A stretch of 35,471 bases of DNA, taken from Bacteroidales bacterium (lineage in GTDB: Bacteria > Bacteroidota > Bacteroidia > Bacteroidales > JAOZQN01). A program made the translations under genes and the position numbers. Below, piece after piece: positions 669 through 29,502 of the stretch. The stretch spans positions 1 to 35,471 of the forward strand of contig JAOZTW010000001.1 of NCBI GenBank assembly GCA_029938985.1, in the 5' to 3' direction. The notes below the pieces were generated by a model. That model saw only the letters and a program-made list of their open reading frames with translations, was not told the DNA's origin and did no database searches. Position 1 is the stretch's first letter; each line of letters opens with the position of its first letter.

Positions 669-1742
669 TTACTTCCGTTTTGTAAACACTATCGCAGAAT
701 ATTCTCCAAATTTACTCATGAAACTGCTATATTTATCTTCAATTTTAATCAAATTATCTAATATTTTTTCACCAAATAACCATTTATGAACATAAATATT
801 CAAAAAATATTTATTTGTACTTCTCCAACAATGGAATTCAATATCTGCACTAAAATCAAAAGATTTTTTAAACCATCTGCGGCTATGTGGATAAAAATAT
901 AATCTTGGTTTTGATTTTGCCAGTCTTACATAAATTTTTCCTGCGAAATATCTTAATATTCTATAAAGTTGAATCAGGTTTAATGAAATGTTCATAAACC
1001 AACTATGATAAAACCAGTTATAAATAATTACTATTTTAGAATTTTGTTTTGCAACTCTGTACATTTCATTCACAGCAATCTTCTGGTCATTTTTAGGAAT
1101 ATGATATAATGTGTGTTGCGAAAGCACTGTATCAATAGAATTATCTTGAATTGGAATATTGGTAATATCACCACAAATATAAATCCCCTTTTTTCCTGCG
1201 TTATCAATATTTATTTTTGCTTGAATCAAAGCATTTATTGATATGTCAACACAAATTCGATAATTATATCCATCAGATAAAGACATATATTCTGGCAATC
1301 CAATCGGTCCGGAAGCAATATCTAATATATAATTGCCATGTTTTGGATAGAATCGTGAAGCTTTTGCAAAAGAATTTTTAATATATTTTGAGGATACCTC
1401 TCTAAAATCAACCCATTTTGGACTATCCTCATATATTTTAAGAGAATCCTTAACTTTATAATTTACTTCGTTGTAATAATCAAAAACTCTTTTCTTATCA
1501 AACGATAAGTTATCCCTTTTTTCTTGAGATTCTCCAATATGTACAGCGTAATGCTCATGTAACACAATTATATCATCAAATATAGGAAAAAAGTATTGTT
1601 TTGTGTTATCAACCAAACCGAAAGAAAGATTATGGAATTTTTCATAGTCTTTTGGTAAATCATAGTTTAGAAATTCTTCTTTCTCGATCAGTTTAAGTCC
1701 ATTTTTTGTTATCGGACATCTTAATTTTTTAATAAAATCCAT
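669..1742 (-). CDS. Class I SAM-dependent methyltransferase with an N-terminal Trm112-like segment
   Basis: N-terminus 'LRCPITKNGL...PIFDDIIVL' is Trm112-like. SAM motif I is 'ILDIASGPIG', followed by 'DISINAL' and 'GDITNIPIQDNSIDTVLSQHTLYHIP', typical of Methyltransf_11-type enzymes. Confidence 0.8.
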   Translation of the reverse strand: MDFIKKLRCPITKNGLKLIEKEEFLNYDLPKDYEKFHNLSFGLVDNTKQYFFPIFDDIIVLHEHYAVHIGESQEKRDNLSFDKKRVFDYYNEVNYKVKDSLKIYEDSPKWVDFREVSSKYIKNSFAKASRFYPKHGNYILDIASGPIGLPEYMSLSDGYNYRICVDISINALIQAKINIDNAGKKGIYICGDITNIPIQDNSIDTVLSQHTLYHIPKNDQKIAVNEMYRVAKQNSKIVIIYNWFYHSWFMNISLNLIQLYRILRYFAGKIYVRLAKSKPRLYFYPHSRRWFKKSFDFSADIEFHCWRSTNKYFLNIYVHKWLFGEKILDNLIKIEDKYSSFMSKFGEYSAIVFTKRK

Positions 1743-2463: not shown

Positions 2464-2499
2464 GAAAAAAACTTAAACAATGCTATGTATAAGCATTGT
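2464..2499 (-). terminator. Rho-independent terminator closing the 10749..2483 operon
   Basis: On the minus strand, 'acaatgct' (2492-2499) pairs with 'agcattgt' (2477-2484) as an 8-bp perfect stem with a 7-nt loop that contains the TAG stop. It is followed by 'ttaagttttttt'. Confidence 0.6.
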
Positions 2500-3583
2500 C
2501 GCCATCACCAGAATAAAATTCAAAATTCTTGTTTTCAAATAATTTAGATATTTTTTTTGAGGCATAAAAATTTTTATTAAATTGTTTAGAAAATAAATAA
2601 GCCGATTTTTTATTAAATATTTCTAATAGATTTTTGTCAAACAAAGTTATAGTAAAAATTTTATTTCTTCTAATTATTTCTTTTAAAATACAATAAATAT
2701 TATTAATTTCATTTTTTTCGTAAAATATGTAAGGTATTTCTATATTTTTATTTCTTATTTTTATTATAAAAAAAGCAGATATTACATTATTTGAATTATA
2801 TATTTTTATGTTATTGTAACAAAAATTTTTACTTATTGAAGAAAAATAATATTTCATATTAAAATTATCAATAAATGGTGCATTTATTACCCAGGGAAAT
2901 TTTTGAAAATGATTAAATTCACTAATGTTTCTTTTAAATGGATTATTTTTATTTTTATTTAAAATAAAATCATATAATTCATTGTCAATATCTTTAATAA
3001 AAACAAAATTTATATTGTTAATTTTATTTGTTCCAAATTTTGATTTTATATTTATAAAAAAATTAAAAGATTTATCTATAATTTTTAAAGCATATTTTAT
3101 TTTTTTAAAAATTTCAATTTTTTTAGGTAAAATTTGATGTGAAGAAAATCTAAAATAAAATCTTTTGCCTTTCAATGATTTAATTTTTTCAAAATGTTTA
3201 CTTTTATCAAAAACAGCTTTTGCATTGGGTGCAAAATTTGAAAAAAAAATATTATCTTGCAAATCCTCAACTATTTTATTTAGCATTTGTATTGAGTAAC
3301 CTTTTCTTCTTTGCTCTGGTTTGACCCAACTACCACTTGTCCAATAAATTTTATATTTTATATCATTAATAAAAATACAATCCGAAAAAATAGTTCTATA
3401 ACCAATAATTTCATTTTTAATATATAAAATATATATTGCTACATCATTTTTCTCGGCTCTATGATTTTTAATATACGATTTTGCTCGATGTACAGAAATA
3501 GGTAAGTGAGGCATATTTTTGTACTCGTTGGAGTTAATAAAACTGTTTAAATCTTTTATATAAATTTTTTTTATTCTATTCAT
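2483..3583 (-). CDS. GNAT-fold acyltransferase, two-lobed and FemX-like in size
   Basis: GNAT motif A-like 'WVKPEQRRKGYSIQMLNKIVEDL' sits in the N-terminal half, followed by a second lobe of about 200 aa. The gene lies 10 nt downstream of the carrier-protein gene. Confidence 0.6.
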   Translation of the reverse strand: MNRIKKIYIKDLNSFINSNEYKNMPHLPISVHRAKSYIKNHRAEKNDVAIYILYIKNEIIGYRTIFSDCIFINDIKYKIYWTSGSWVKPEQRRKGYSIQMLNKIVEDLQDNIFFSNFAPNAKAVFDKSKHFEKIKSLKGKRFYFRFSSHQILPKKIEIFKKIKYALKIIDKSFNFFINIKSKFGTNKINNINFVFIKDIDNELYDFILNKNKNNPFKRNISEFNHFQKFPWVINAPFIDNFNMKYYFSSISKNFCYNNIKIYNSNNVISAFFIIKIRNKNIEIPYIFYEKNEINNIYCILKEIIRRNKIFTITLFDKNLLEIFNKKSAYLFSKQFNKNFYASKKISKLFENKNFEFYSGDGDNAYT

Positions 3584-3593
3584 TTATATAAAT

Positions 3594-3827
3594 TTATTCA
3601 GTGTGTTTTTTTGAAACAGCTATAGAAATATCATTAATTGTTTCAAAATCAATAATTTCATCTAAATCAAAACTTAGATTAAACTCATCTTCTAAGCTAC
3701 TAATAATAACTGCATGATTTAACGAATCCCAATTTTCAATATTTTCTAACTGAGTATCTTTAGTAATATTACTATTCGAAATTTTTAATTTTTTTGATAT
3801 TAAATTAATAATTTTTTCTGTTATCAT
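3594..3827 (-). CDS. Stand-alone acyl/peptidyl carrier protein, 77 aa
   Basis: 'MITEKIINLISKKL...IENWDSLNHAVIISSLEDEF' carries a DSL phosphopantetheine-serine motif in a helical protein of about 77 aa. I trimmed the ORF-track start at 3965 because it overlaps the upstream gene. The ATG at 3825-3827 lies 19 nt after that gene's stop. Confidence 0.75.
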   Translation of the reverse strand: MITEKIINLISKKLKISNSNITKDTQLENIENWDSLNHAVIISSLEDEFNLSFDLDEIIDFETINDISIAVSKKHTE

Positions 3828-3846: not shown

Positions 3847-6126
3847 TTAATTGTTATATTTAGTTTGTGCAAAAATATAAATTGAATTAACATCTGCAAA
3901 ACCAATTTTTTTATAAACTCCATTTCCCACCTTAGTTGAATGCAAAACAAATTCAAATATTTCATTTTTTATAGCTTCATTTATTGCATACAAAGTTATG
4001 GCAGTTCCAAATCCTTTTTTTCTATAATTTTGGTCAGTTGCAATCATATATAATCCTGCTATACTGTTGTTTACATACAACAAAGAAGTAGCCACTGCTA
4101 CACCTTTATAAGTGGCAAGATACAAATAAAAATTGGGATTATTAAGAATTTCGGAGAATAAAGTTTCGGTTAAACTGCCGTTTGAATTAAGTGCATTATT
4201 AGCTATTTTTAACCAAGATTCTAATTGTTCTTGTTTTGTTATTTTAACAATATTTAAGTTTTCATTATATTTATTTTCAATTATTTTATCTTTAAAACAA
4301 TACATTCCTTGCCATTTTGTGATAGGAAAAAAATTATTTTTTTTTAATTCTTTATATTTAAAATTTGTAATATCTGAATTAATAATCCATTTTTTAGGAA
4401 GTTCGTTATTACTAATTAATTTTTTTATTTTAATTAAATTTTCGTCAAAATTTTGTTTATCAATATTTTTATTTAAAATAAAATTAAGCCATTTACCTTT
4501 TGTATTAATAATTGCCGAGAAATCTTTTTCTTTATATGTAGATATATCTTTGTGTGCTATCCAAGAATTATAAAATTGAATTAAATTTGTTTCAATTTTA
4601 AGTTTTTGTTGTTTAATATTATTTTTTTTTACAATCATATCTTTGATTTTATTTCTGTCAGTTTTTCCACTCAAATTTATTGGAAATTGTTCTAATTCAA
4701 TAATTTCGCTTGGTAGCATGTAAGTTGGTAATTTTTTTTGCAAATATTGAAAAAGTGTTTTTTTATCTTTTTGCAAATTTAAGCAAATAAGTTTAATATC
4801 ATGTAAATTTTCAGAATTTTTTATTGCCAAAGCAACAAAATTATCAGCACTCCCCCACTCCACTGCCACGCTTTCAATTTCTTCAAGTTCAACTCTATAG
4901 CCTTGTATTTGAACTTGATTATCAATTCGCCCAAGAAAATAATAATTTTCATTATCATTTTTTATAACTAAATCTCCTGTTTTATAAAATCGGTATTCTT
5001 TATTGTTGTATATTTTGTTAAAAAACTTTAATTTATTGTTTTCAATATTATTAAAATAACCAACTGTTATTTGATTTCCTGCAATACATAATTCTCCTTT
5101 TTTACTGTTTTCTAATATATTATTTTCAATATCTACAACAACAGCAATAGTTGAACCAAAAGTTTTCCCAATAGCTACTATATTATTATTACTTAGATAA
5201 TTATCGTTTTTATGTTTTGTCCAATTAAAAAAATGAGTATCAACAGTTGCCTCAGTTGGTCCATAGGCATTAAATATTTGAGCGTTTGCAATACATTTTT
5301 GCCATTTCAAAAGGTCTGTTTCAAATAATGCTTCTCCTCCAAAAAGTTGTAATTTTATATATGGAAGATGTATTTTATCAAAGTATGATTTTAAAAAAGA
5401 TAACATAGATGGTGTAAATTTTGCAACCGTAATATTATATTTTTTCATAATTTTATATGCCTCTAAATATTTTACTTTTGTTGCAGAAACAGTATAAACA
5501 CTTGCTCCAATAAATAGCGGAAACAGAAAGGAAGGAATTGAGGCATCAAAAGTTAAATCATAAATTTGAAGGAATCTGTCATTATTATTTAAGTTATTAA
5601 AAAAATATTTATAATCTACAATAAATGAATTCAAATTTTTTAATGAAATTTTCACTCCTTTTGGTTGCCCTGTGCTTCCTGAAGTAAAAAATATATACAT
5701 TAAATCATTGTAGGAGAATTTTGAAAAATCTACATTAATATTAATATTTGATTTAATAAAATTTGTATTAACTACAATATTTTCAAAACTATATAATTTA
5801 TTAAAACTTGCTGTACTTGTCAAAATCAAATCTGGTTTTATTTGATTTAAGATTTTTTTATTTCTACTTTTAGGGTGTTTTGGATTCAATGGAACAAAAA
5901 TATTATTAGTAAACCAGCTGGCTAAAATACTTGCATAAGTTTCAATATCATTGTTTACATAAATAACAATAATATTTTGTTTTTCATTTACCTCTTGTTT
6001 AATTAGAAAAATTATTGTATCAATTACCTTTTTAAAATACTCATAAGAATATTTTTTTCCATTAATAAAAAAAGCTGTACTTTTATTATAAAGTGATAAA
6101 TTTTTATGTATAGTCTCTAAAAACAT
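3847..6126 (-). CDS. NRPS-type amino-acid adenylation enzyme (DltA/AlmE-like) fused to a C-terminal GNAT acyltransferase region of about 250 aa
   Basis: Adenylation core motifs are 'FFTSGSTGQPKGV' (A3), 'FDAS' (A4), 'NAYGPTEATV' (A5), 'YKTGDL' (A7), 'GRIDNQVQIQGYRVELEEIE' (A8) and 'LSGKTDR' (A10). The C-terminus has GNAT motif A 'YMIATDQNYRKKGFGTAITLYAINEA'. Confidence 0.85.
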   Translation of the reverse strand: MFLETIHKNLSLYNKSTAFFINGKKYSYEYFKKVIDTIIFLIKQEVNEKQNIIVIYVNNDIETYASILASWFTNNIFVPLNPKHPKSRNKKILNQIKPDLILTSTASFNKLYSFENIVVNTNFIKSNININVDFSKFSYNDLMYIFFTSGSTGQPKGVKISLKNLNSFIVDYKYFFNNLNNNDRFLQIYDLTFDASIPSFLFPLFIGASVYTVSATKVKYLEAYKIMKKYNITVAKFTPSMLSFLKSYFDKIHLPYIKLQLFGGEALFETDLLKWQKCIANAQIFNAYGPTEATVDTHFFNWTKHKNDNYLSNNNIVAIGKTFGSTIAVVVDIENNILENSKKGELCIAGNQITVGYFNNIENNKLKFFNKIYNNKEYRFYKTGDLVIKNDNENYYFLGRIDNQVQIQGYRVELEEIESVAVEWGSADNFVALAIKNSENLHDIKLICLNLQKDKKTLFQYLQKKLPTYMLPSEIIELEQFPINLSGKTDRNKIKDMIVKKNNIKQQKLKIETNLIQFYNSWIAHKDISTYKEKDFSAIINTKGKWLNFILNKNIDKQNFDENLIKIKKLISNNELPKKWIINSDITNFKYKELKKNNFFPITKWQGMYCFKDKIIENKYNENLNIVKITKQEQLESWLKIANNALNSNGSLTETLFSEILNNPNFYLYLATYKGVAVATSLLYVNNSIAGLYMIATDQNYRKKGFGTAITLYAINEAIKNEIFEFVLHSTKVGNGVYKKIGFADVNSIYIFAQTKYNN

Positions 6127-6189: not shown

Positions 6190-7197
6190 TTACATTTTTA
6201 TATTATTTTTGCCAAAAAAAGATTTTAAAAAATAATAGAAATATTCGTATTTAATAATATTTTTAGCCTTTAAATTTGATATTTCCATAGGTATTCGTTC
6301 AATATTTTTTTCCGAAAAATGATGTTTCAAACCAAAAGTACCAAATGTTAGTTCAAAATTATTTTTAAATATTATATTAAAAAATGTTTTACTTACTTTT
6401 GCATCGGTAAAAGGAAAAGCAAAAATTTTGTAATTCAAATTAAATTTTTTACAAATAAAATCAGAACTGTTATTTGTTTGTTCCACCTGCTCTTTTAAGC
6501 TTAATTTTTTATATTCAGGATGATTAACACTATGACATCCAATTGAAAAACCATCTGCAATTAATTTATTTATTTGCACTGTTGTTAAATAAGGTTTTTC
6601 TTTTTTTAAAAATTCATTAAAATCTAAATTTATAAGCTCTGCAATTTCGTTCAATTTATTTTTATCTGAATATTTAATTTGTTTAAGCCAATCAAATATA
6701 TTTATATTTAAGTGATTATCTTTTTGTATATAATTTAGTAATTTATTTTTATTTTTTGAATTATTTATTATTTCTTCAATAATTAAACTTATTTTATATC
6801 TATAAAAAAGTGATTTATTATCAATAAAATGCGAGTTTAAAAAAAAAGTTGCAGGAATACCTTTTTTTTTAAGTATTGGAGCAATAATATCATAACATTC
6901 ACTTAATCCATCATCAAACGAAAGAAAAAAAGATTTTTTAGTAATTATTTTTTCTTTATAAAAATGTTTTTTTAACTGCAGATAATTAATAGGTTGATAA
7001 TATTTTAATAAATAATCTAAGTCATTTATAAATTGTTTTTCGTTTTTTAATTGATATAAATGTTTAATATGTGCCAGTTTATTGTTACTTATTGTATGAT
7101 AAAAAGGCAAAATTATTTTCATATCAACTCCATTTATTAATAATTTAGATGGAATAACACTTGAAATTTTTTGAATAATATTTTGATATTTGTTCAT
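6190..7197 (-). CDS. Polysaccharide deacetylase (NodB/CE4 family)
   Basis: The NodB motifs 'SFDDGLSECY' (Asp-Asp) and 'GCHSVNHPEY' (His-x-x-x-His) are both intact. Confidence 0.8.
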   Translation of the reverse strand: MNKYQNIIQKISSVIPSKLLINGVDMKIILPFYHTISNNKLAHIKHLYQLKNEKQFINDLDYLLKYYQPINYLQLKKHFYKEKIITKKSFFLSFDDGLSECYDIIAPILKKKGIPATFFLNSHFIDNKSLFYRYKISLIIEEIINNSKNKNKLLNYIQKDNHLNINIFDWLKQIKYSDKNKLNEIAELINLDFNEFLKKEKPYLTTVQINKLIADGFSIGCHSVNHPEYKKLSLKEQVEQTNNSSDFICKKFNLNYKIFAFPFTDAKVSKTFFNIIFKNNFELTFGTFGLKHHFSEKNIERIPMEISNLKAKNIIKYEYFYYFLKSFFGKNNIKM

Positions 7198-7201
7198 AAA
7201 A

Positions 7202-8095
7202 TCAAAATTTCTTAAATAATCTAAATATTTTAGGTATTCTATTTTGATTATAATTTGAATAGAAAAACTCTTGAAAATTAAAACCTAAAGCAAGTTCTTT
7301 AATATTTTCAATATACTTACCGTCTAAGTGAAGTGAGATATTTTTTTTTGAATTAATTTTAATAAAGTAGTTTATCAAAAAAATAGCTGCATCTACATTT
7401 TCACAATTTAAAAATAACAGATTAACATTATGTTTAGAAAAAATGAAAAAAGATAATCCTAATAATTTATTTTTATTATCGTAAACTCCAAGTAAAACGG
7501 AGATTTTTTTTAATAACGATTTTGAAATCAACCTTCTCAAATTATCATAATCCTCTGGTAGTTCAAAATAATTTTTGTTTTTCAAATAATTAATTACAAT
7601 ATGAGGAGAAACTCCAGCTTTAACAAAATATTTATTATTATTTCCTGTCTGAATTGATTTTAAACAATTCCAAGAAAAAATTTTCACTATGGAGGAATAA
7701 GGTTCAATTAAATCTAAGGTATAATAATTTTTATTTTCTAAAATTAGTTGTTCTGGAAAAATATTATGTTTGTTGAAATTCAGATTTATTTTTTTGAATT
7801 TCTCTGGAATAAAATTTATAAAAGCCTCAGTATCTGCCTCATTTAGAGTTGTTGTGCTGTAAATCCCAAGCTGAAATACAAAAATAGGTTGAAATATAAC
7901 ATTGTACTTCAATTTTGAGTAATATATTAAAGGTAACACTTTTTCGTAATCACCATGTACAATTGCCGCCCAATTAGAACTCATGCAATCTAAATACCAG
8001 GAATATGCAAATACCTGACAATTAATAGATTTGGAAATACATAAATCCCATTTACGATATTCAATTTCTTTATTTTTTAAAAATTTTAATTTCAT
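7202..8095 (-). CDS. FemAB/Acetyltransf_6-like (GNAT-fold) acyltransferase family protein
   Basis: N-terminus 'YRKWDLCISKSINCQVFAYSWYLDCMSSNWAAIVHGDYEKVLPLIY' matches a conserved Bacteroidota family with an acyl-CoA N-acyltransferase fold. It lies 4 nt from the deacetylase gene and shares an ATGA overlap with the upstream gene. Confidence 0.55.
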   Translation of the reverse strand: MKLKFLKNKEIEYRKWDLCISKSINCQVFAYSWYLDCMSSNWAAIVHGDYEKVLPLIYYSKLKYNVIFQPIFVFQLGIYSTTTLNEADTEAFINFIPEKFKKINLNFNKHNIFPEQLILENKNYYTLDLIEPYSSIVKIFSWNCLKSIQTGNNNKYFVKAGVSPHIVINYLKNKNYFELPEDYDNLRRLISKSLLKKISVLLGVYDNKNKLLGLSFFIFSKHNVNLLFLNCENVDAAIFLINYFIKINSKKNISLHLDGKYIENIKELALGFNFQEFFYSNYNQNRIPKIFRLFKKF

Positions 8096-10749
8096 TTTTC
8101 TTTTATCTCAAATCTTTTATTTATTTCGCAATTATTTGCATCTCTCACGGTTACAAAATACTCACCTTGTGATATGTTTTCCAAAGTAGCTGTTGTATTA
8201 CCATTTGTCCAACTAATTGCATAAGGTTTAGTTCCACCAGAAAGAGACAATTCAATTTTACCATCACTTTTGTTTTTCGAAGGTAAACTAAAATTTGCTA
8301 TTATTTCAAATTGTTCTGGTTTATTTATTACGGCTTCTTTTGTAATAGTACAATCATATTTATCGGTTATTTCAACAACATAAGTACCGCTATCTAAGTT
8401 CGTTAAAGATTGTACGTCTCCCCCACCCGACCAACTATATAAATATTCAGGAACTCCTCCTTGTGGTTTTACAAATATTGAACCATTATTTTTTTCAAAA
8501 CAAGTAACATTTTGTATTTCAAGTTCAGCTGTTAAAACATTTGTTGGTGTTTTAACATTTACAGTTTTATTTTCCTTACAACCATTAGTATCAATTATTT
8601 CTATTTTATAATCTCCAGCGGTTAATTGACTAATAATAGAATCTGTAACTCCATTTGACCACTTATATTTGTAAGGAGCTGTTCCGCCCGTTACAGATGC
8701 TAATACCTCACCATCATTTCCCTTAAAACAACTGACATTCTTGGGGTTAGCATTAATATAAATTCTTCGTGCAGGTTGATTTACATATATAATTCTTTCA
8801 TTTTTACAATTATTTTTATCAATAACAGTAATACTATAAGGTCCAGCTCTCAATTTATTTATCTTATCTTTTTCTTCCCTATTAGACCATTTATAGCTAT
8901 AATCTGGAGTTCCCCCAGTTACAAATAATTCAATTTTTCCATCTTCTCCTCCAAAACATTTTACATCAGTTGTGGTATAATCTATCTTAATTGTGTCTTC
9001 TGGTTGTGTAATTTCAATAGTATCATTAAATACGCAATTAAATTTATCAATTATTTGTAAATGATATTTTCCTGCCTCCAGTCCAGTCATTCGTTTATTT
9101 TCATAAGTATCTATCCATAAGTACTTATAACCTCCTCCACCACCTTCAGCATCTGCTTTTATTGTGGCATCGTTTCCTCCAAAACAATTTACATTTTTAA
9201 TATCATACCTTGCAGTTAATGGATAGTCTGGTTGTTGAATATTTACTCCTTGTTCATAAGTACAATCGTGAGAATCAGTTAATAATAAATTATATCTTCC
9301 AACTCCAAGATTACTTGCTTCTTCTGTAGTATCTCCTGTTGACCATTTATATCTATAAGGTGGAGTTCCGCCCGAAGCCGATGCTTTTGCAACTCCATCA
9401 AAACCATCTTTACAGGTTACTTTTGTTGTTTCAAACTTGAGTGCAAGCGGAAAATTTGGTGTAACAATTGTTACACTATCTGTTCTTACACAATTGTTAT
9501 CATCTTGAACTATAATTCCATATATTCCTTTTCTTAAATTATAAATAGAATCTTGTTTTTTTGCATTTGTTGACCACACGTAATAATAAGGTGGTACTCC
9601 ACCAGAAATATTTGCAATAAGTTTACCATCATTTTCTTTATAACAGGTAATTTGATGTATATCAACATTTAGCATTAAAGAATCTAAAGGTTCGGTTAAT
9701 GTAAAAGAAGTAGATGCTTTATTGTTCTTATTATCAATTACCTCAACTGAATATGTGCCAGCAAGCTCATTAATTAGGTTTTCGGTAGTGTCTCCATTAG
9801 ACCATTTATATTTGTAATCAGGTATTCCTCCACGCACAAGTAAGTCAACAATTCCATTATTTCCTCCTTTACAAAACGGATTTCTTACATAGCCATCAAG
9901 ACTCAACATTTCTTCAAACTTGAATGAAATTTGAGTTACATTATCATTCTCATCAAGAATTGCTTCTGCAACAGGTATTCCTTCATTTTTAGCATACCAA
10001 CGATATTGGGTATATTTAACACTTTTAGAATATTTTAAACATGGCTCCCAATATCCTGTATTTACTGGACCCAATGAATCTGATGTTATTTCTGTTGAAT
10101 TTTCTTTTCTTCTATTTGTTCTAATTCGCTTTTTGATAACTGTTTTTTCGCACAGTACATCAAAAGTGTTAATAGCAGTTCGCAGTTCGGCTTGTTCAAT
10201 AAATTCGGTATGTATTTCTAAATCAATAAAAGACATAATAGAATCTATTGAAACATCGTAATTGTCTTCAAAAGCAGATTTAAACACTATATCGTTTTTA
10301 CTTACAATAGAATCTCCTTCTGTTAGTGGGAAATTATACTGTAAAACAAAGTCTGGAAATTGAACAAAAGCGGGAGTTCCAATGTGTAAATAATCTCCAA
10401 TTACTCCTGCCTGCTGTAATCCGTTTTCCGACAAGTTCCAATAATTTGCTTTAGAAAACCTATATGTTTTTACAATATTTATTGAGTCAAAATACTTTCC
10501 ATAAGTAGTTTCACTCGGTTTTTGAAAACGTATAGTATCGTAACTATCTTTTTTTAAAAATGAAAAATCCCAAGTATTTCCTCGTTTAAAATTTTCTATT
10601 TTAACTTCTTCTTCGCTTTTAAAAGTAGAAATTGCCATTATAAAATTCTCTCCAGGTTTTGCAAAATCGTTGTAGTCAATTTCAATTTGTGCAAAAATTG
10701 ATAATGGAAATATCAGAGTTATTAAAATGATTGATAGAAAATTTTTCAT
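8092..10749 (-). CDS. Secreted SprB-repeat protein: signal peptide, a 270-aa domain of unknown function, then eight SprB repeats. No recognisable T9SS C-terminal domain.
   Basis: The signal peptide is 'MKNFLSIILITLIFPLSIFAQ'. Eight repeats with a period of about 76 aa fit 'C.GG.DG.I....GG.PPY.Y.WS.G'. The protein ends at a repeat boundary ('NCEINKRFEIKEK'). Confidence 0.85.
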   Translation of the reverse strand: MKNFLSIILITLIFPLSIFAQIEIDYNDFAKPGENFIMAISTFKSEEEVKIENFKRGNTWDFSFLKKDSYDTIRFQKPSETTYGKYFDSINIVKTYRFSKANYWNLSENGLQQAGVIGDYLHIGTPAFVQFPDFVLQYNFPLTEGDSIVSKNDIVFKSAFEDNYDVSIDSIMSFIDLEIHTEFIEQAELRTAINTFDVLCEKTVIKKRIRTNRRKENSTEITSDSLGPVNTGYWEPCLKYSKSVKYTQYRWYAKNEGIPVAEAILDENDNVTQISFKFEEMLSLDGYVRNPFCKGGNNGIVDLLVRGGIPDYKYKWSNGDTTENLINELAGTYSVEVIDNKNNKASTSFTLTEPLDSLMLNVDIHQITCYKENDGKLIANISGGVPPYYYVWSTNAKKQDSIYNLRKGIYGIIVQDDNNCVRTDSVTIVTPNFPLALKFETTKVTCKDGFDGVAKASASGGTPPYRYKWSTGDTTEEASNLGVGRYNLLLTDSHDCTYEQGVNIQQPDYPLTARYDIKNVNCFGGNDATIKADAEGGGGGYKYLWIDTYENKRMTGLEAGKYHLQIIDKFNCVFNDTIEITQPEDTIKIDYTTTDVKCFGGEDGKIELFVTGGTPDYSYKWSNREEKDKINKLRAGPYSITVIDKNNCKNERIIYVNQPARRIYINANPKNVSCFKGNDGEVLASVTGGTAPYKYKWSNGVTDSIISQLTAGDYKIEIIDTNGCKENKTVNVKTPTNVLTAELEIQNVTCFEKNNGSIFVKPQGGVPEYLYSWSGGGDVQSLTNLDSGTYVVEITDKYDCTITKEAVINKPEQFEIIANFSLPSKNKSDGKIELSLSGGTKPYAISWTNGNTTATLENISQGEYFVTVRDANNCEINKRFEIKEK
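8095..9873 (-). repeat. Eight tandem coding repeats of about 228 bp (SprB repeat units)
   Basis: The repeat-initial Cys residues at aa 293 and 369 show the period, which continues to the C-terminus. Confidence 0.8.
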
Positions 10750-10777
10750 TCTAAAGATTTATAAATTGTTTTTATTG

Positions 10778-10785
10778 CAAAATTA
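10778..10785 (-). promoter_or_regulatory. Bacteroidota-type -7 box (TAnnTTTG) candidate for the SprB-repeat operon
   Basis: The minus strand reads 'TAATTTTG', 29-36 nt upstream of the ATG at 10749. Confidence 0.3.
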
Positions 10786-10871
10786 ATAAAAAAGCAAATA
10801 AATATCTATTTTATTACCTTTTTTTATTAAAAAAATATTATTTTTCATATTTAATTTAAAATAAATAACTT

Positions 10872-11507
10872 ATGGAAAGTTACAATTTTTCTCAAATTAC
10901 GTTTCAAATTTTACGTAAAATAACAAATATAGAATTAGGAGAAGAAGAAAATAAATTTGATGAATGGTTTGGTTATAACTACAAACTAAACAATGAAGAA
11001 GAAAACTTTTTGCAAAATATTATTAAAAAAGAAAAAATATATTTGCATTTATACAACGAAGAGCTTTTAAAAGCAAGGTTTTTACACCCTTTGTTAAATA
11101 TGGTAGATTTTAGAACCAAAAATTTTAGAGACTGGTATGCCTATCCAATATCGGCAGTTGTAAATGGCTACAAATTATCGGGACTACCAGATTTTATGGT
11201 TGCCACAGGATTAGAATTTCCAGAAAAACCATATTTCTTTATTCAAGAGTTTAAAAAACAACTTACTAACTCCGACCCATTAAGACAATTACTCTCAGAA
11301 ATGGCTGTTGCAATATCGTACAATAAAGTAAAAGAAACACAAGGAGCTTATAATATTGGTCAATTTTGGAAATTTGTTATTCTCACAAAATTGGACGAAA
11401 GCAAATATCAATATTATGAGTCGCAAAGTCTTGATTGTCTTAAAATTAATGATTTAAAACAAATTTACCAAAATTTACAAGCTGTTAAACATAAATATTG
11501 TAAGTAA
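10872..11507 (+). CDS. Hypothetical protein with a PD-(D/E)xK nuclease-like signature (HsdR-N-like)
   Basis: 'GLPDFMVATG...PYFFIQEFKK' fits the D...(D/E)xK spacing of restriction-endonuclease-fold proteins. No neighbouring gene is an obvious partner. Confidence 0.4.
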   Translation: MESYNFSQITFQILRKITNIELGEEENKFDEWFGYNYKLNNEEENFLQNIIKKEKIYLHLYNEELLKARFLHPLLNMVDFRTKNFRDWYAYPISAVVNGYKLSGLPDFMVATGLEFPEKPYFFIQEFKKQLTNSDPLRQLLSEMAVAISYNKVKETQGAYNIGQFWKFVILTKLDESKYQYYESQSLDCLKINDLKQIYQNLQAVKHKYCK

Positions 11508-11562
11508 AATTTTAAGTGAAAAACTATTCACGCTAATTTTAGGCATATTAAAACAAATAACT

Positions 11563-11757
11563 GGCTACTATATTAAGACTTAAATACAAAAAATTATGAT
11601 TTATGTGAAATATTTTGGCATTTTTTTGTTGTAAAAATATTAAAATATGCTACCTATATAAAATATAATTTAAGTATTTGTCATAATATTCAGACGTTTC
11701 CAAGTCCTCCTATTTTTTGCCTTGTGGCAAAAAATAGGGGACGTTGGAAAGTCTTTT
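11563..11757 (-). repeat. Dispersed repeat family R1, copy a (inverted relative to copy b), containing a long imperfect palindrome
   Basis: The reverse complement aligns with 33236..33402: 'aaaaagactttccaacgtccc.tattttttgcca.aaggcaaaaaata..ggacttggaaacgtctgaata..atgaca...' and ends in 'ttaagtcttaata..tag'. The palindrome core is about 11690..11756. Confidence 0.8.
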
Positions 11758-11882
11758 TCATAAAATAATACTTTAGAAAATTAAATAGTTTCAAATAATT
11801 CATCATTAGTAATTTGTCTTAAATCAAAGAAATAGCAAACTAATTTAGTTATTTGCAAACTTATTATTTTCCAATTCCAAAA

Positions 11883-12665
11883 CTAACTAACAGCAAATTC
11901 TGAAAGTTTTTTCAAGAAATTTTTCTTTTTCCCTTCCGAAACATCTACCTGTTTGTCGGTAGTTAGAATAACATATCCACCACGTCCTTTAACATATTTT
12001 TTAATATATTTTAAATTCACAAGATGTTTATTATGGATTCTACAAAAATTTGAATTGCTCAACATTCGTTCGTATATTTGAATTGATTTAGAAACTACAA
12101 TTTTTTTCTTAGTTGTTAAATAAAAAGTAGTATAATTATTGCTCGATTCACAACGCAGAATATCATCTAATTGAATAATATTTAAACCTGAAGAAGTAGG
12201 TAAAATAAGTCGGTCTAAATTTTTGTTAATATTGCTATTAAGTACTTTTATCTTTTCTTTTAAGTCTTCGTTTTTTGCATCATCAAATCTACCAACCGCT
12301 TCTTTTAATTGCATACCAGTAACAGGTTTCACAAGATAATGTAAAGCTGAGAACTCAAAGGCTTTAAGGGCGTAGTGATTATAGGCAGTTATAAAAACAA
12401 CTTCAAGAGAAGTGTCATTAATTTTTTCTAAAACCTCAAAACCCTCACCATCAGGCATACTGATGTCTAAAAATACAAGTTCTGGTTTGTTTTTATTAAT
12501 AACCTTAATCCCCTCTGCCACAGATTGTGCCACTGCAACTACCTCAACTTGTGGACAATTTTTTTCAAGAAGTTTTGATAAAATTATCAAACTATTTTTT
12601 TCGTCATCAATAAGTACAGTTTTAATTTTTTTTTCATTCATAATATTATATTTTAGTTGTTTCAA
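11883..12665 (-). CDS. LytTR-family response regulator
   Basis: The receiver domain shows 'KTVLIDDE...ELVFLDISMPDGEGFEVL'. The C-terminal LytTR region shows 'ILRCESSNNYTTFYL...FCRIHNKHLVNLKYI'. The alternative start at 12641 (MNEKKIK...) may be the true one. Confidence 0.9.
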   Translation of the reverse strand: MKQLKYNIMNEKKIKTVLIDDEKNSLIILSKLLEKNCPQVEVVAVAQSVAEGIKVINKNKPELVFLDISMPDGEGFEVLEKINDTSLEVVFITAYNHYALKAFEFSALHYLVKPVTGMQLKEAVGRFDDAKNEDLKEKIKVLNSNINKNLDRLILPTSSGLNIIQLDDILRCESSNNYTTFYLTTKKKIVVSKSIQIYERMLSNSNFCRIHNKHLVNLKYIKKYVKGRGGYVILTTDKQVDVSEGKKKNFLKKLSEFAVS

Positions 12666-17541: not shown

Positions 17542-18405
17542 ATGAAAAATTATTTATCAACATTGATTTTTATTCTGTTTTTTGTTGTAAGTGGCTATGC
17601 TCAAATAGACATGATTCAAGTAGATGGCACTAGTGCCGATGGATACACGATGGGAAATATCAATGCAGGAGTACAAGACGAAGGAAAAGAGCACCGGGTA
17701 GTTGTTGATGCATTTCAAATTGCATCTAAAGAAGTAACATTCCAAGAATTTGATTTGTTTTGCAATATGACAAGTTATCCAAAACCAAGCGATCAGGGTT
17801 TTTCAGATATTACGGGAGATGACAAAAAAAATGCTCAACTAAGAGATTCGTTACCAGTAATAAATGTAACTTGGATGGGGGCTGTAATGTATTGTAATTG
17901 GTTGAGTAAACAATATGATTACAAACAGTATTATATTATTGAATTAGATACATCGGGTGTGTTGGCGTTTAAAGGCATAAATCCAGACAATGATGGATTT
18001 AGATTACCAACAGAAGCAGAATGGGAATGGATGGCAAAAGGAGGAGCTACACCACCTCCACATTTTTCTTATGCAGGAAGTAACAATTTAGAAGAAGTAG
18101 CTTGGGTACAAAGTAATTCTAAAGCCAAAACTCAGCCAGTTGGCACAAAAAAACCAAACGAACTTCAAATTTACGACTTATTAGGAAATGCTCCAGAATG
18201 GTGTTACGACTATTATGGTGCAACTTACTACACTGCACAAGGAAATGGGAACAACCCCAAAGGACCATCTTCTGGAATAGCAAGAGTATATAGAGGTGGG
18301 AGTTTTAACTCACCTACCGCAGGATTTAGATATACTAAAAGATATAAATTATCTCAAACTGAAAGTATTGGTCCCATTGGTTTTAGAGTAGCAAGAAATA
18401 AATAA
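17542..18405 (+). CDS. Secreted FGE-sulfatase (SUMF1/GldK-like) fold protein, paralog 1
   Basis: The signal peptide is 'LIFILFFVVSGYAQ'. Family motifs are 'RLPTEAEWEWMAKGG', 'GNAPEWCYDYY', 'RVYRGGSF' and 'IGFRVARN'. Confidence 0.85.
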   Translation: MKNYLSTLIFILFFVVSGYAQIDMIQVDGTSADGYTMGNINAGVQDEGKEHRVVVDAFQIASKEVTFQEFDLFCNMTSYPKPSDQGFSDITGDDKKNAQLRDSLPVINVTWMGAVMYCNWLSKQYDYKQYYIIELDTSGVLAFKGINPDNDGFRLPTEAEWEWMAKGGATPPPHFSYAGSNNLEEVAWVQSNSKAKTQPVGTKKPNELQIYDLLGNAPEWCYDYYGATYYTAQGNGNNPKGPSSGIARVYRGGSFNSPTAGFRYTKRYKLSQTESIGPIGFRVARNK

Positions 18406-18446
18406 TTTAGTTTTTGAATATTAACAAATGATTTCAAATAAATATA

Positions 18447-18487
18447 AAATCCTTTAAGAGTTGTAAAACGAGCTTAAAGGATTTTTT
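18447..18487 (+). terminator. Rho-independent terminator
   Basis: A 12-bp perfect stem pairs 'aaatcctttaag' (18447-18458) with 'cttaaaggattt' (18473-18484) around a 14-nt loop. It runs into a T6 tract. Confidence 0.7.
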
Positions 18488-18744
18488 AGATTATAATTAA
18501 GAGGAAATGAAATAATAAAGTAAGTCCAAAATACACAGTTTTTTTGTTTTTTTAATAATTTAACAATCTGCAAATAGCGAGATATTTAATGACTTTTTTA
18601 AAATTAAAAAAAAACAAGTAGATTGGTGATGAGTAGTTGACCATAAATAAACGACACTTTTTAAGGTCAATTTTAGCATTATGCTTCGTTATAAAAGATT
18701 ACCTACTTAACTTTTTTTCTTGTTCACTAAAATACATAAATAAA

Positions 18745-19611
18745 ATGAAAAATTCGATATTTATATTATTTTTAATATTTTCAATAGTAACAAATAGTTA
18801 TTCACAAAACCCCAAAATGGTATTAGTTGCAGGAACTGGCACAGAGGGTTACACAATGGGAAATATATATTCAAAAACTCCTGACGAAGGGCATGAACAC
18901 ACAGTTGTCTTAGATGCTTTTTATGCAGGTAAGTTTGAGGTAACTTTTAAGGAATTTGATTTTTTTTGTAAATCTACAGGTTTTCCAATTCCCTCAGATC
19001 AGGGTTTTGCAAGCGAAACATCAAATAAGGAAATTAACAAAAAAATAAGAGATTCACTCCCAGTAATTAATGTAACCTGGATTGGAGCTATTATGTATTG
19101 TAATTGGCTTAGTAAAATTGATAACTTAGACCAATATTATATCACAGAATTAGATACAATTGGTAATTTTAGTTTCAAAGGAATAAAAGCAGAGAACAAC
19201 GGCTACCGACTACCAACAGAAGCCGAATGGGAGTGGATGGCAAATGGTGGTGCAAAAAAGAAAGGTTATGCGTTTTCGGGAAGTAACAATATATACGAAA
19301 TTGCTTGGATAAAAGAAAATTCTGATGCTAAAACACATAAAATAGGTACTAAAAAAGCTAACGAACTTGGAATTTATGACTTAAATGGGAACGCCCCAGA
19401 ATGGTGTTATGATTATTATTCAAAAAGCTATTACGCAAGCAATAAAAATAAGGATAATCCCAAAGGTCCAAACAATGGTTCATCAAGAGTTTATAGAGGT
19501 GGGAATTTCAATACTCCAAAACAAAACTACAGGATAACAAGAAGATACAAGTTAACACAAAGCGAAAATATTGGTCCAATTGGTTTCAGACTTGTTAAAA
19601 ATAAGAATTAA
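18745..19611 (+). CDS. Secreted FGE-sulfatase fold protein, paralog 2 (tandem duplicate)
   Basis: It is colinear with paralog 1: 'RLPTEAEWEWMANGG', 'GNAPEWCYDYY', 'RVYRGGNF', 'IGFRLVKN'. I moved the start from the ORF-track TTG at 18637 to the ATG at 18745, which gives signal peptide 'MKNSIFILFLIFSIVTNSYSQ'. Confidence 0.85.
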   Translation: MKNSIFILFLIFSIVTNSYSQNPKMVLVAGTGTEGYTMGNIYSKTPDEGHEHTVVLDAFYAGKFEVTFKEFDFFCKSTGFPIPSDQGFASETSNKEINKKIRDSLPVINVTWIGAIMYCNWLSKIDNLDQYYITELDTIGNFSFKGIKAENNGYRLPTEAEWEWMANGGAKKKGYAFSGSNNIYEIAWIKENSDAKTHKIGTKKANELGIYDLNGNAPEWCYDYYSKSYYASNKNKDNPKGPNNGSSRVYRGGNFNTPKQNYRITRRYKLTQSENIGPIGFRLVKNKN

Positions 19612-27096: not shown

Positions 27097-27531
27097 ATGA
27101 TAATTATGCTTATAACTATACAATCTTTTAATCACAAACACGAGCTTTTTAAAAAAGCCATGGAGATTAGATTTACTGTTTTTGTAGAAGAACAAAATGT
27201 TGATAAAAATATAGAATATGATGGGTTAGATTTTGAGGCAGTCCATTTTATTGTAATTATTGATGACACACCTGTTGCTACTTTGAGATACAGAGAAACT
27301 GAAGAGGGGGTAAAAATTGAACGAATGTCGGTTCTTAAAGAACATAGAAGATTGGCGTATGGGCATTTATTGTTAAAACATGTTCTTGCTGGGTTGGTTT
27401 TATCAAAACATAAAATATATTTGAATGCTCAAGAATCGGCGGTAAACTTTTATAAAACAATGAATTTCAGTATTGTTGGCGACGAATTTTATGATGCTAA
27501 TATTAAACATTTTAAGATGATTTATAAATGA
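27097..27531 (+). CDS. GNAT-family N-acetyltransferase (ElaA/YjcF-like)
   Basis: 'IRFTVFVEEQNV....EYDGLD' and 'RMSVLKEHRRLAYGHLLLKHVL' (motif A) fit the family. An ATGA overlap links it to the next gene. Confidence 0.8.
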   Translation: MIIMLITIQSFNHKHELFKKAMEIRFTVFVEEQNVDKNIEYDGLDFEAVHFIVIIDDTPVATLRYRETEEGVKIERMSVLKEHRRLAYGHLLLKHVLAGLVLSKHKIYLNAQESAVNFYKTMNFSIVGDEFYDANIKHFKMIYK

Positions 27532-29027
27532 ATCCACTAAAAAAACTTGCTGGACAAACAGCAGTATATGGATTGAGTAGTATTGTAGGGCGTTTTTTAA
27601 ATTATTTATTAGTTCCGCTTTATACATATAATTTTGCAACTCACGAATATGGTATTGTTACAGAGCTATTTGCTTATGTTGTAGTATTACAAATACTACT
27701 AACTTATGGAATGGAAACTGGTTTTTTTAGGTTTTCTCAAAAAGACTATTCAAAAGACACAGTATTTTCTACAGCAATAACCTCATTGTTTTTTACAACA
27801 CTTTTGTTTCTTGTGGTTGGCATAGTTTTCTCAAAAAATATAGCAACAGTAATAGATTATCAACAACATGTAGAATATATAATTTATTTTGTATTAATTC
27901 TTAGTCTTGATGTGCTTACAGCCTTGCCTTTTGCTCGTTTGCGTTTGCAAAACAAGGCGAAAAAATTTGCTATTTTAAAAATTATTAATATTTCTGTAAA
28001 TATTGGTTTAAATTTATTTTTTATAGTTTTTTGTCCAATGGTTATTGAAAACAACCCAAATTCTATATTAAATAATGTTTATAATCCAGAAATTGGTGTT
28101 GGTTATATTTTTATTTCAAATCTTGTAGCAAGCTCCGTAGTTTTTATATTATTTTTACCAAGTTATTTTAAAGTAAAATATAATTTTGATAAAAAATTAT
28201 TAAAATCAATGCTTATTTATTCATTACCATTATTGCTAACAGGATTAGCTGGAGCTGTTAATGAGGTGTTTGACAGGATTTTACTAAAATATTGGTTGCT
28301 TGTTCCAGAAGGAATTGAAAATGGTGGTGAGTATGTTATGAAGCAAATAGGAATTTATGGAGCTAATGCAAAAATAGCTGTTTTAATGATAATGTTTGTA
28401 CAAGCATTTAGGTACGCAGCCGAACCTTTTTTCTTTTCCTTTGATAAAAAAAAGAATTCTAATACAGTTTTTGCTGATATAATGAAATATTTTATTATCA
28501 TTGCATTATTAATGTTTCTTGGAGTGATGTTTTATTTGGATATTGTAAAATATTTTATTCATAAGGATTATTTTGAAGGATTAAAAGTTATATTACCATT
28601 ATTTTTAAGTAGAATATTTGTTGGAATTTTCTTTATTTTATCTTTTTGGTACAAACTAAAAGATATTACTAGATATGGAATTGTAATAGTTATCACAGGT
28701 TCAATTACAACCATTGTGCTAAATTATTTTTTAATTCCTAAATACGGATATATTGGAGCTGCATGGACTAATTTTTCAACTTATCTTGTTATGATAATAA
28801 TATCGTTTATTTGGAGTAGAAAATATATGCCAATAAAATATGATTTTAAACGAATTTTTGCTTACTTTGCATTAGCATTACTTTTATATTTTGTTTCAAT
28901 TCAGTTTGAATACAATAATATCGCTATTAAATTGCTTGTAAACACAGGGTTGCTTTCAATTTATGTAGTAATAGTGGCATATTTTGAAAATATTTTTCAA
29001 TTAATAAAAAAGAAATTTAAAAAATAA
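27528..29027 (+). CDS. Polysaccharide biosynthesis protein, an oligosaccharide flippase of the MOP/Wzx-like superfamily
   Basis: It is a protein of about 14 TM segments with N-terminus 'LAGQTAVYGLSSIVGRFLNYLLVPLYT'. Pairing of this gene with dut is conserved in Bacteroidota. Confidence 0.8.
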   Translation: MNPLKKLAGQTAVYGLSSIVGRFLNYLLVPLYTYNFATHEYGIVTELFAYVVVLQILLTYGMETGFFRFSQKDYSKDTVFSTAITSLFFTTLLFLVVGIVFSKNIATVIDYQQHVEYIIYFVLILSLDVLTALPFARLRLQNKAKKFAILKIINISVNIGLNLFFIVFCPMVIENNPNSILNNVYNPEIGVGYIFISNLVASSVVFILFLPSYFKVKYNFDKKLLKSMLIYSLPLLLTGLAGAVNEVFDRILLKYWLLVPEGIENGGEYVMKQIGIYGANAKIAVLMIMFVQAFRYAAEPFFFSFDKKKNSNTVFADIMKYFIIIALLMFLGVMFYLDIVKYFIHKDYFEGLKVILPLFLSRIFVGIFFILSFWYKLKDITRYGIVIVITGSITTIVLNYFLIPKYGYIGAAWTNFSTYLVMIIISFIWSRKYMPIKYDFKRIFAYFALALLLYFVSIQFEYNNIAIKLLVNTGLLSIYVVIVAYFENIFQLIKKKFKK

Positions 29028-29033
29028 GTTTTT

Positions 29034-29465
29034 ATGACAATAAAAATAATAAATAAATCCAAAAATACTCTTCCTGCTTATAGTACAGAATACTCTGCGG
29101 GAATGGATTTAAGAGCAAATTTAGATAAAATAGTTATTATAGAACCATTGGAACGAGAACTTATTCCTACAGGTTTGTTTATTGAACTACCACAAGGATA
29201 TGAAGCACAAATACGTCCCAGAAGTGGATTGGCTATAAAAAATGGAATAACTCTGCTTAACGCACCAGGAACAATTGATGCAGATTACAGAGGCGAGATT
29301 AAGGTTATATTAATAAATTTGTCGAACACCAATTTTGAAGTAAAAAATGGCGAAAGAATTTGTCAAATGGTGATTGCAAAACACGAAAAAGTAGATTGGC
29401 AACAAGTAACAATTTTAGAAGAGTCGGGTAGGGGAGAGGGTGGTTTTGGACACACAGGAAAATAA
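29034..29465 (+). CDS. dut: dUTP diphosphatase
   Basis: 'AGMDLRA', 'RPRSGLA', '[11 protein letters not shown]', 'GERICQMV' and '[10 protein letters not shown]' are the five dUTPase motifs. Confidence 0.95.
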
Positions 29466-29502
29466 ATTTAAGAATTATAAATTAATAACTAAAATAATAA
29501 TT

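Follow-up and report, generated by a model that had tools for sequence, protein, structure and literature searches.

Amino sugars with N-(aminoacyl) or N-(N-acetyl-aminoacyl) groups are frequent in the surface polysaccharides of bacteria, and to our knowledge most of these groups have not been assigned to the enzymes that make them. In the mycothiol pathway of Actinobacteria, MshB deacetylates, MshC attaches cysteine, and the tandem GNAT enzyme MshD N-acetylates the cysteinyl amine. Bacterial O-antigens contain amino sugars of the N-(N-acetyl-alanyl) and N-(N-acetylglycyl) types (PMC3210612). A route to N-aminoacyl sugars by a deacetylase and a FemAB-like enzyme has been established in Bacteroidota for the linking sugar of T9SS, the secretion system of type IX (PMC7468200). 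In this Wbp/Vim pathway of Porphyromonas and Tannerella, the CE4 enzyme VimE frees the 2-amine of the sugar, and VimA of the GNAT/FemAB family adds Ser or Gly (PMC7468200). Here we describe a gene cassette in a 35,471-nucleotide (nt) stretch of DNA of a Bacteroidales bacterium (GenBank assembly GCA_029938985.1, contig JAOZTW010000001.1, positions 1 to 35,471 of the forward strand). This whole stretch is called the window below. The central gene of the cassette encodes a 759-amino-acid (aa) protein that consists of an adenylation (A) domain and a tandem GNAT, and a small carrier protein is encoded next to it. Judging by its genes, the cassette probably decorates an amino sugar with an amino acid or an N-acetylamino acid.

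The gene is a single uninterrupted open reading frame (ORF) at positions 3847..6126 with zero internal stops. A preliminary description made from the DNA letters had placed the ORF there and left its strand unstated; it is the minus strand. The GC content of the window is ~25%, and a search of the window for tRNA and Rfam features found none. SprB repeats in the window and the taxonomy of its homologs point to a Bacteroidota genome. The parts of the 759-aa protein and the carrier are located as follows:

4642..6126, minus strand: A domain of the non-ribosomal peptide synthetase (NRPS)/DltA type, aa 1-495 of the 759-aa fusion
4624..4641, minus strand: fusion junction, linker-free, placed by homolog alignment and a three-frame view
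4276..4641, minus strand: N-terminal degenerate GNAT lobe, ~aa 496-617, placed by an AlphaFold2 model, Foldseek and the family alignment
3850..4275, minus strand: C-terminal canonical GNAT lobe, ~aa 618-759, matched by Pfam Acetyltransf_10/1/7
3594..3827, minus strand: stand-alone carrier of 77 aa, PP-binding E 7.2e-09, with Ser35 in WDSL

Pfam AMP-binding (PF00501) covers aa 16-358 of the protein (E 4.9e-49). The NCBIfam amino-acid adenylation model TIGR01733 matches the N-terminal 495 aa with E 1.3e-84, and DltA models match too. The TIGR01733 score of 284.4 bits is under the curated cut-off of 317.4. Thus, on its profile score the A domain is a divergent subfamily of amino-acid adenylation domains. 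The core motifs were found at aa 147 (FTSGSTGQPKGV), 193 (FDAS), 286 (NAYGPTE), 381 (YKTGD), 399 (GRIDNQVQIQGYRVELEEIE) and 485 (LSGKTDR). The AMP-binding fold and the located motifs A3, A5, A7, A8 and A10 Lys are those of ANL / NRPS-type adenylation enzymes. The A10 Lys is Lys488 (nt 4663-4665); it lies within FPINLSGK / LSGKTDR, in the P-x-x-x-S-G-K context. The preliminary description also ended the A domain with this LSGKTDR lysine, as we do; its boundary at about residue 510 has to be moved, since the alignment with split homologs gives aa 495-498. A complete C-A-T module of an NRPS is not what the protein represents: the Pfam and NCBIfam searches show no condensation, thioesterase or reductase family, and the carrier is separate. 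The DltA models TIGR01734 and NF003417 stay far from their cut-offs (225.6 vs 559.85 and 240.5 vs 476 bits). The classic Dlt system was rejected because no MBOAT gene was detected in the window, either by tblastn or by Pfam on the window ORFs.

The solved structures closest to the A domain are two LgrA A domains (module 2 best), then GrsA-PheA and DltA. The 10-residue pocket code is DAPKLGAVDK in the window protein, and the family consensus, found in 63/120 relatives, is DAHKLGVINK. The Lys at pocket position 278 presumably resembles Asp/Asn codes, and we made no substrate assignment. The equivalent of Asp235 is Asp194 (nt 5545-5547), inside FDAS 193-196; it was mapped through what we take to be the corresponding segment of GrsA-PheA, the numbering of which is self-consistent. 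The Asp235 and Lys517 equivalents are kept in 120/120 homologs of the subfamily, and the conserved Asp argues for an A domain that binds a substrate with a free alpha-amine. Acetylation of the free amino acid by the GNAT ahead of its activation was also considered. It was rejected, because the Asp235-equivalent implies a free alpha-amine in the pocket; acetylation would therefore follow loading, not precede it.

The ~250 aa behind the A domain contain a GNAT, as the preliminary description had noticed from motif A and from the lack of condensation, thioesterase and reductase motifs. Aa 656-749 score above the Pfam gathering cut-offs for Acetyltransf_10 (PF13673; 31.3 vs 23.6 bits) and Acetyltransf_1 (PF00583; 28.1 vs 20.7). 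The motif A string QNYRKKGFGTAITLYAINEA begins at aa 699, and the CoA pyrophosphate loop R702-K-K-G705-F-G707 (R-x-x-G-x-G) is encoded at nt 4006-4023, in the C-lobe. Both Gly of the loop (G705 and G707, which are G210 and G212 in the alignment) are invariant across the tail family, and so is Tyr738 (Y243 in the alignment), the Tyr of a Y-x-x-x-G-F motif. The N-lobe is without a CoA loop, and the family alignment shows a conserved W-x-G-M motif there.

An AlphaFold2 model of aa 496-759, built from nine family sequences, has a mean pLDDT of 90 and a pTM of 0.87 and consists of two consecutive alpha/beta lobes. The second, degenerate GNAT lobe that had been guessed at the N-terminal side of the tail is present in this model and in the tandem GNATs that it matches. 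Using Foldseek against the PDB, we found Legionella VipF with acetyl-CoA and the Kribbella GNAT 4ius (TM 0.73) at the top, together with the glucosamine N-acetyltransferase of C. acetobutylicum, MAB_4324, MshD (1ozp, 2c27) and the clavulanate tandem GNAT. The alignments span 240-290 columns (VipF, 4ius, 5kf1, 7q3a, 1ozp, 2wpw). Every top match has two lobes; most of these structures contain acetyl-CoA or CoA or bear an acetyltransferase annotation. The sequence profile of the tail family also matches VipF first (6wqb, E 1.9e-10). With a Pfam GNAT above its gathering score, a CoA loop and two folds of which the N-terminal one is loop-less, the tail has the features of a tandem GNAT. The comparison with FemX and MprF that had been suggested was run, and they are not the nearest relatives: FemX-type aminoacyl-tRNA-dependent synthases and MprF appear only at ranks 30-49 (TM 0.47-0.50, ~0.48 as a rule). 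The tail has no FemAB match, and PF13480 reaches 18 bits vs a cut-off of 22. Thus the tail looks like an acetyl-CoA-dependent tandem N-acetyltransferase in its modelled fold, and the conserved loop and Tyr738 argue for acetyl-CoA as the predicted donor. VipF, the glucosamine N-acetyltransferase, 4ius and MAB_4324 share with it the two-lobe fold, the degenerate N-lobe and the acetyl-CoA-binding C-lobe. The sequence identity to them is only 10-17%, and, unlike the tail, none of these VipF-type tandem GNATs is fused or genomically coupled to an adenylation enzyme and a carrier.

A homolog search with the whole 759-aa protein gave 3,394 homologs. Among the best 120, which were inspected, nearly all are A-domain proteins with a length of 480-510 aa, aligned to only the first 65% of the query, and P0109 (779 aa) is the only relative with the full architecture. 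A search with the tail alone returned stand-alone proteins of 247-273 aa, encoded on the same contigs as the A homologs and immediately downstream of them. In the locus L001, for example, the A gene shares 11 nt with the GNAT gene, which is read in another frame, and the carrier gene stands behind the two. The tail profile was searched against 1.84 billion representatives, 805 of which belong to the family at E<=1e-30. The window protein is the only A-domain fusion among the best 150 of these representatives (1/150); one PLD-like-domain fusion and one CPT-type kinase fusion are also among them. We also scanned genomes, one per species, with a degenerate DNA pattern of the A4 region and examined off-centre 8-kb blocks. 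The counts describe this sample, and an absence from such a block is weak evidence. The scan gave at least 119 loci, mostly from Bacteroidota and some from Ignavibacteria. Classified with hidden Markov models, they include at least 35 split loci with adjacent A and tandem-GNAT genes vs at least three fused ones (the window, L005 and L030). L005 and L030 are both from Saprospiraceae, and a comparison of their fusions across the junction gives 57% identity. It turned out that these two fusions are only 30% identical to the window protein, the nearest relatives of which (46-52% identity) are split. Therefore, as far as these identities tell, there were at least two independent fusion events, one of which has been maintained through speciation.

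The Met496 codon (4639-4641) aligns with the start Met of the stand-alone GNATs (alignment of P0021+P0121 and P0030+P0127), and M496-I-V-K-K-N-N-I of the window protein aligns with their N-terminus M-I-N-N-N-E-I. By this alignment the fusion is end to end and linker-free, with Met496 as a relic start codon. A run of nine A (coding strand, 4625-4633) directly follows the Met496 codon, and before as well as after it the reading frame is the same for the C-terminus of the A domain, Met496 and the GNAT. With this continuous frame, the fusion cannot be the product of a homopolymer error; we rejected the run as the source of an artefactual fusion, as an error in its length would break the GNAT and not join the genes. 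The run could also be a place of slippage that switches GNAT expression on and off, and its assembled length keeps the frame.

An artefact or decay would mean that an indel merged the overlapping genes, or that the fusion is recent and neutral, with the internal start Met496 able to give a separate GNAT. We consider this highly improbable. In its favour, homologs are split almost without exception, a 1-nt change suffices to fuse the ancestral genes because these overlap by a few nt in different frames, and the nine-A run stands at the junction of a sequence that comes from a metagenome assembly. Against this, a Logan assembly of SRR21545381 contains a 7,250-nt stretch identical to the window with the same 759-aa product; both assemblies may share the same reads. 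The continuous frame and the fused orthologs kept in two Saprospiraceae species, at 57% identity and so viable and selected, also speak against an artefact. Read from these comparisons, the 759-aa protein is a natural fusion of two normally separate genes, genuine but rare. The preliminary description was right to call the fusion unusual. It saw the novelty in the polypeptide; with homologs overwhelmingly split, the novelty lies in the conserved gene triad of A, GNAT and carrier.

The putative phosphopantetheine-attachment residue of the carrier, Ser35, is encoded at nt 3723-3725. The stop codon of the fusion occupies 3847-3849 and the ATG of the carrier is at 3827, and thus the gap is exactly 19 nt; the coordinates agree with the earlier statement that the carrier is unfused and lies 19 nt downstream. 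In the split loci that were read, the overlap of the A gene with the GNAT gene amounts to 4-11 nt, or a gap of ~10 nt separates them. The distance from the A domain to the carrier is ~0.8 kb, and the position of the carrier after the GNAT is conserved in relatives. On this gene order, A/GNAT/carrier is a conserved triad of Bacteroidota and Ignavibacteria, present in at least ~40 species and in three genomic contexts.

A sister branch with the same A subfamily has a different, single GNAT of ~220 aa between the A domain and the carrier. In L113, L034 and ~33 further loci among L024-L126 this sister triad forms a three-gene unit. In 16/35 of these sister loci, among the matches listed, the 8-kb block also contains an MBOAT (DltB-like) gene; deacetylase, 366-aa-family and 297-aa-family genes (described below) were found in the 8-kb blocks of none of the at least 35. 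The sister triad resembles a Dlt-like system to which a GNAT has been added, and Chryseobacterium gleum is among its Bacteroidota hosts. Proteins of ~1,010 aa in L024 (1185-4202) and L092 (464-3508) consist of two tandem AMP-binding domains of this A subfamily, and in both loci an MBOAT gene lies a few hundred nt downstream of the twin-domain gene.

The fusion and the carrier are parts of a minus-strand operon in the order SprB-repeat protein, 297-aa protein, CE4 deacetylase, A-GNAT, carrier, 366-aa protein and a terminator-like hairpin. The neighbours of the fusion and the carrier within the cassette are:

2483..3583, minus strand: 366-aa Eis/N-myristoyltransferase-like tandem GNAT, from an AlphaFold2 model (pLDDT 89) and Foldseek
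6190..7197, minus strand: CE4 polysaccharide-deacetylase-family protein of 335 aa, Polysacc_deac_1 E 2.2e-18
7202..8095, minus strand: 297-aa protein with no Pfam match of its own, from a family that is weakly FemX/Acetyltransf_6-like
2476..2500, minus strand: terminator-like hairpin where the 366-aa gene ends

The Foldseek search with the 366-aa protein gave 3n7z, 2i00 and Eis2, which are Eis-like acetyltransferases, and N-myristoyltransferases at the top. By sequence, its family gives only a weak N-terminal GNAT signal in the PDB, Pfam and NCBIfam. A gene of this family stands right after the carrier in every cassette examined that has one, and on its modelled fold the 366-aa protein is a candidate off-loading acyltransferase. 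The window deacetylase is 41% identical to its ortholog in L067. In the 297-aa family, the member in L005 matches PF13480 (1.7e-09) and FemAB (0.0024) and is the only member with such a match. The family profile has weak FemX-type matches in the PDB (E 0.1-0.5), and TIGR03019 (pep-cterm_femAB) was matched by none of four family members at E up to 1. Among the matches listed, the 40 tandem-GNAT loci contain the 366-aa family in 25, the deacetylase in 19, the 297-aa family in 16, a hexapeptide transferase in 4 and an MBOAT gene in 2.

The hairpin at 2476..2500 is the likely 3' end of the operon. A scan for sigma-70 promoters was uninformative in the AT-rich window, with 93 sites vs 77 expected. 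The SprB-repeat protein (885 aa, 8092..10749, minus strand) has an apparent N-terminal signal peptide. Its gene overlaps the start of the 297-aa gene by 4 nt (ATGA-type), and this surface-adhesin-like gene appears to be translationally coupled to the cassette. Por_Secre_tail was not detected in the SprB-repeat protein. Proteins with a T9SS tail flank the cassette in L001, L008 and L011.

Other genes of the window are mentioned here for completeness. A class I S-adenosylmethionine methyltransferase of 357 aa (669..1742, minus strand) is encoded ~740 nt downstream of the cassette terminator, and it lies outside the cassette in all relatives examined. At 27097..29027 (plus strand) a gene for a 144-aa single-domain GNAT overlaps by 4 nt the gene of a 499-aa protein of the Polysacc_synt flippase family. 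This is the second glycan-related GNAT pairing in the window, and it is followed by a PD-(D/E)XK transposase-family gene (29440..30477). Two adjacent FGE-sulfatase (formylglycine-generating-enzyme-like) paralogs of 287 and 324 aa are encoded at 17542..19611 (plus strand).

The recurrent order of the cassette in relatives is 297-aa family, deacetylase, A, GNAT, carrier and 366-aa family, and a DUF7033 protein is often first. L067 has the deacetylase, A, carrier and 366-aa-family genes, and the GNAT is absent. In L008 (WLH_MAG_45, 7879..12102) a DUF7033 protein, a 291-aa protein, a 385-aa protein of the 366-aa family and the deacetylase are present without A, GNAT and carrier. Therefore, the core of acyltransferase and deacetylase can work with another acyl donor. 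The L008 set adjoins genes of a flippase, a hexapeptide transferase and a methyltransferase. In L120 (371..7404) and L022 (74..7858) the A, tandem-GNAT and carrier genes are inside an O-antigen-like sugar cluster. The triad is followed there by genes of a hexapeptide-repeat transferase, a PP-loop (Asn-synthase/QueC-like) amidotransferase, a HisF-like protein, a GFO/IDH oxidoreductase and glycosyltransferases (GT2), a set that we take to resemble acetamidino-sugar (WbuX/Y/Z-type) pathways. L006 (GCA_029935815.1, JAPOGS010001583.1; 1545..3534) encodes the closest available relative of the 366-aa protein (59% identity), followed by a 297-aa-family gene. A, GNAT and carrier were not detected in the 1.5 kb available upstream. 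Thus, on the genes compared, even close relatives can differ in how the cassette is arranged.

How could these proteins work together? We tentatively propose, with slightly less than even confidence, that the GNAT N-acetylates the carrier-bound amino acid and that another enzyme moves the acyl group to a deacetylated amino sugar. The A domain would activate an alpha-amino acid with ATP and load it as a thioester on the phosphopantetheine of the 77-aa carrier. The tandem GNAT, riding on the mobile C-terminal subdomain of the A domain, would then N-acetylate the tethered alpha-amine via acetyl-CoA. The CE4 deacetylase would free the amine of an N-acetyl amino sugar, either in a nucleotide- or lipid-linked precursor or in the glycan. 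Finally, the 366-aa protein, the 297-aa protein or both would transfer the N-acetyl-aminoacyl group from the carrier to the sugar amine. This would yield a surface glycan with an N-(N-acetyl-aminoacyl) amino sugar. We prefer this tailoring role of the GNAT because its nearest structural relatives are acetyl-CoA-dependent N-acetyltransferases, because the cassette can exist without the GNAT (L067), and because the triad is constant while the candidate off-loader varies (366-aa/297-aa proteins, hexapeptide transferase, MBOAT).

Several observations weigh against this proposal. The GNAT fold and the conserved CoA loop are also compatible with an aminoacyl-carrier donor, since the donor pocket binds the pantetheine arm common to CoA and the holo-carrier. 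The tight coupling or fusion of A and GNAT fits an off-loading GNAT equally well. L015, L029, L060 and other loci show no 366-aa-family gene in the few kb that could be read downstream. The ~220-aa-GNAT triads of L113 and L034 are not followed by a transferase gene in the operon, and MBOAT genes occur near the ~220-aa-GNAT triads (16/35 in the 8-kb blocks, among the matches listed). In addition, the link of the 297-aa family to FemAB appears weak in the profile searches.

The tandem GNAT could itself be the aminoacyl transferase, moving the aminoacyl group from the aminoacyl-S-carrier to an acceptor amine, for example that of a deacetylated sugar. It would then be a carrier-dependent functional analogue of FemX/VimA, and the 366-aa and 297-aa proteins would perform other acylations, e.g., capping. 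We regard this as possible, though doubtful. GNAT-fold enzymes that use acyl-carrier donors are known, namely LuxI-type synthases and FeeM-type N-acyl amino acid synthases, and together with the shared pantetheine arm they favour such a transferase on general grounds. A and GNAT genes that overlap or abut, and are fused in two independent lineages, are expected for enzymes sharing a carrier-bound intermediate, and the sister triads of L113 and L034 without a following transferase gene are also in line with it. On the other side, the nearest structures are acetyl-CoA-dependent, with FemX-type enzymes and MprF ranking 30th or lower; the CoA pyrophosphate loop is strictly conserved; and the GNAT is constant while the transferase candidates vary with the context, which is the pattern of a tailoring enzyme. 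L067, moreover, retains deacetylase, A, carrier and 366-aa genes without any GNAT. The preliminary description had suggested that activation and transfer are joined in one polypeptide. An A domain and a two-lobed GNAT in one chain, with the carrier in trans, are indeed what the window encodes. The role as aminoacyl transferase is possible and is not the best-supported one, given that acetyl-CoA-type folds are nearest, the operon holds other off-loaders and L067 is GNAT-less. The more far-reaching idea, that the GNAT is a new class of carrier-dependent aminoacyl transferases and that the cassette builds an aminoacyl sugar attaching or decorating surface proteins or glycans, seems unlikely to us. 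If it is true, this would be a tRNA-independent counterpart of FemX/VimA, and the sugar would serve non-Porphyromonas Bacteroidota much like the T9SS linking sugar.

It is also conceivable that the GNAT has a regulatory function and, like the lysine acetyltransferases Pat or AcuA, switches off the A domain via Lys488, as is the case with AMP-forming acyl-CoA synthetases. That GNATs can acetylate the A10 lysine of ANL enzymes is well established, and AcuA forms a complex with AcsA (PMC11255334, PMC11619455). The P-x-x-x-S-G-K context of this lysine (FPINLSGK) is present in the window protein, and a regulator adjacent or fused to its target is plausible. Nevertheless, we find this explanation very unlikely. 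An inactivator covalently fused to its own domain would be an odd design. NCBIfam gives no curated lysine-acetyltransferase (AcuA/Pat) match for the tail, its best matches being weak ones to RimI-type N-alpha-acetyltransferases, and the structural neighbours of the tail acetylate small-molecule or sugar amines or protein N-termini. No sirtuin or AcuC deacetylase partner was found among the window ORFs scanned.

We found no published description of the cassette, the triad or the A-GNAT fusion in the literature. The fusion is a rare gene-fusion variant, and its value is the physical-linkage evidence that it gives for a fairly widespread triad. It serves as a Rosetta stone, in which a dedicated adenylation enzyme is physically tied to a tandem GNAT. 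If the proposal of N-acetylation on the carrier is true, there is a carrier-protein route to amino-acid-decorated glycans, parallel to the tRNA-dependent Fem/VimA route and the route through MshC-type ligases. Glycobiologists who study amino-acid modifications of glycans would obtain candidate genes, and a GNAT acting on a carrier-bound amino acid would join the known NRPS-like tailoring steps.

Besides the tandem N-acetyltransferases, four known systems can be compared with the cassette. The Dlt system (DltA/DltC/DltB/DltD) and the Vibrio AlmE/AlmF/AlmG system likewise consist of a stand-alone ligase and a small carrier and decorate envelope polymers. DltA models and structures are among the better matches of the A domain, and the sister loci are MBOAT-linked. 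In contrast to Dlt, no MBOAT/DltD-like gene was found in the window, and MBOAT genes occur in 2/40 tandem-GNAT loci among the matches listed. Here a GNAT stands between the ligase and the carrier and is fused to the ligase, and the genes beside them encode a CE4 deacetylase and cytoplasmic GNAT-fold acyltransferases.

The likeness to mycothiol biosynthesis is that an amino sugar is deacetylated, an amino acid is added and its amine is N-acetylated by a two-lobed GNAT with an acetyl-CoA-binding C-terminal lobe; for the cassette this order of steps is the one proposed above. There is no membership at the sequence level: the deacetylase is of the CE4 type here vs the LmbE/MshB type, an ANL adenylation enzyme and a carrier stand in place of a CysRS-like ligase, and the hosts are Bacteroidota vs Actinobacteria. 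With the Vim pathway the window operon shares a CE4 enzyme (Polysacc_deac_1) and a weakly FemAB-like protein. The 297-aa family differs from VimA in that it lacks the TIGR03019 match that VimA has, so that it does not qualify as VimA by this model. The window ORFs scanned include no Wbp genes, and the cassette adds an adenylation enzyme, a carrier and two further tandem GNATs.

The fourth system is the formyltransferase-A-PCP initiation module of the linear gramicidin synthetase LgrA, the closest solved relative of the A domain. In such NRPS modules a tailoring domain fused to the A domain modifies the carrier-bound alpha-amine ahead of transfer. The window protein differs from it by a C-terminal tandem GNAT vs an N-terminal formyltransferase, by a separate carrier and by having no condensation domain, and on-carrier acetylation is hypothetical here. 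By analogy, the cassette would work most like a Dlt/Alm ligase-carrier pair combined with LgrA-like tailoring on the carrier, in an order of steps like that of MshB, MshC and MshD.

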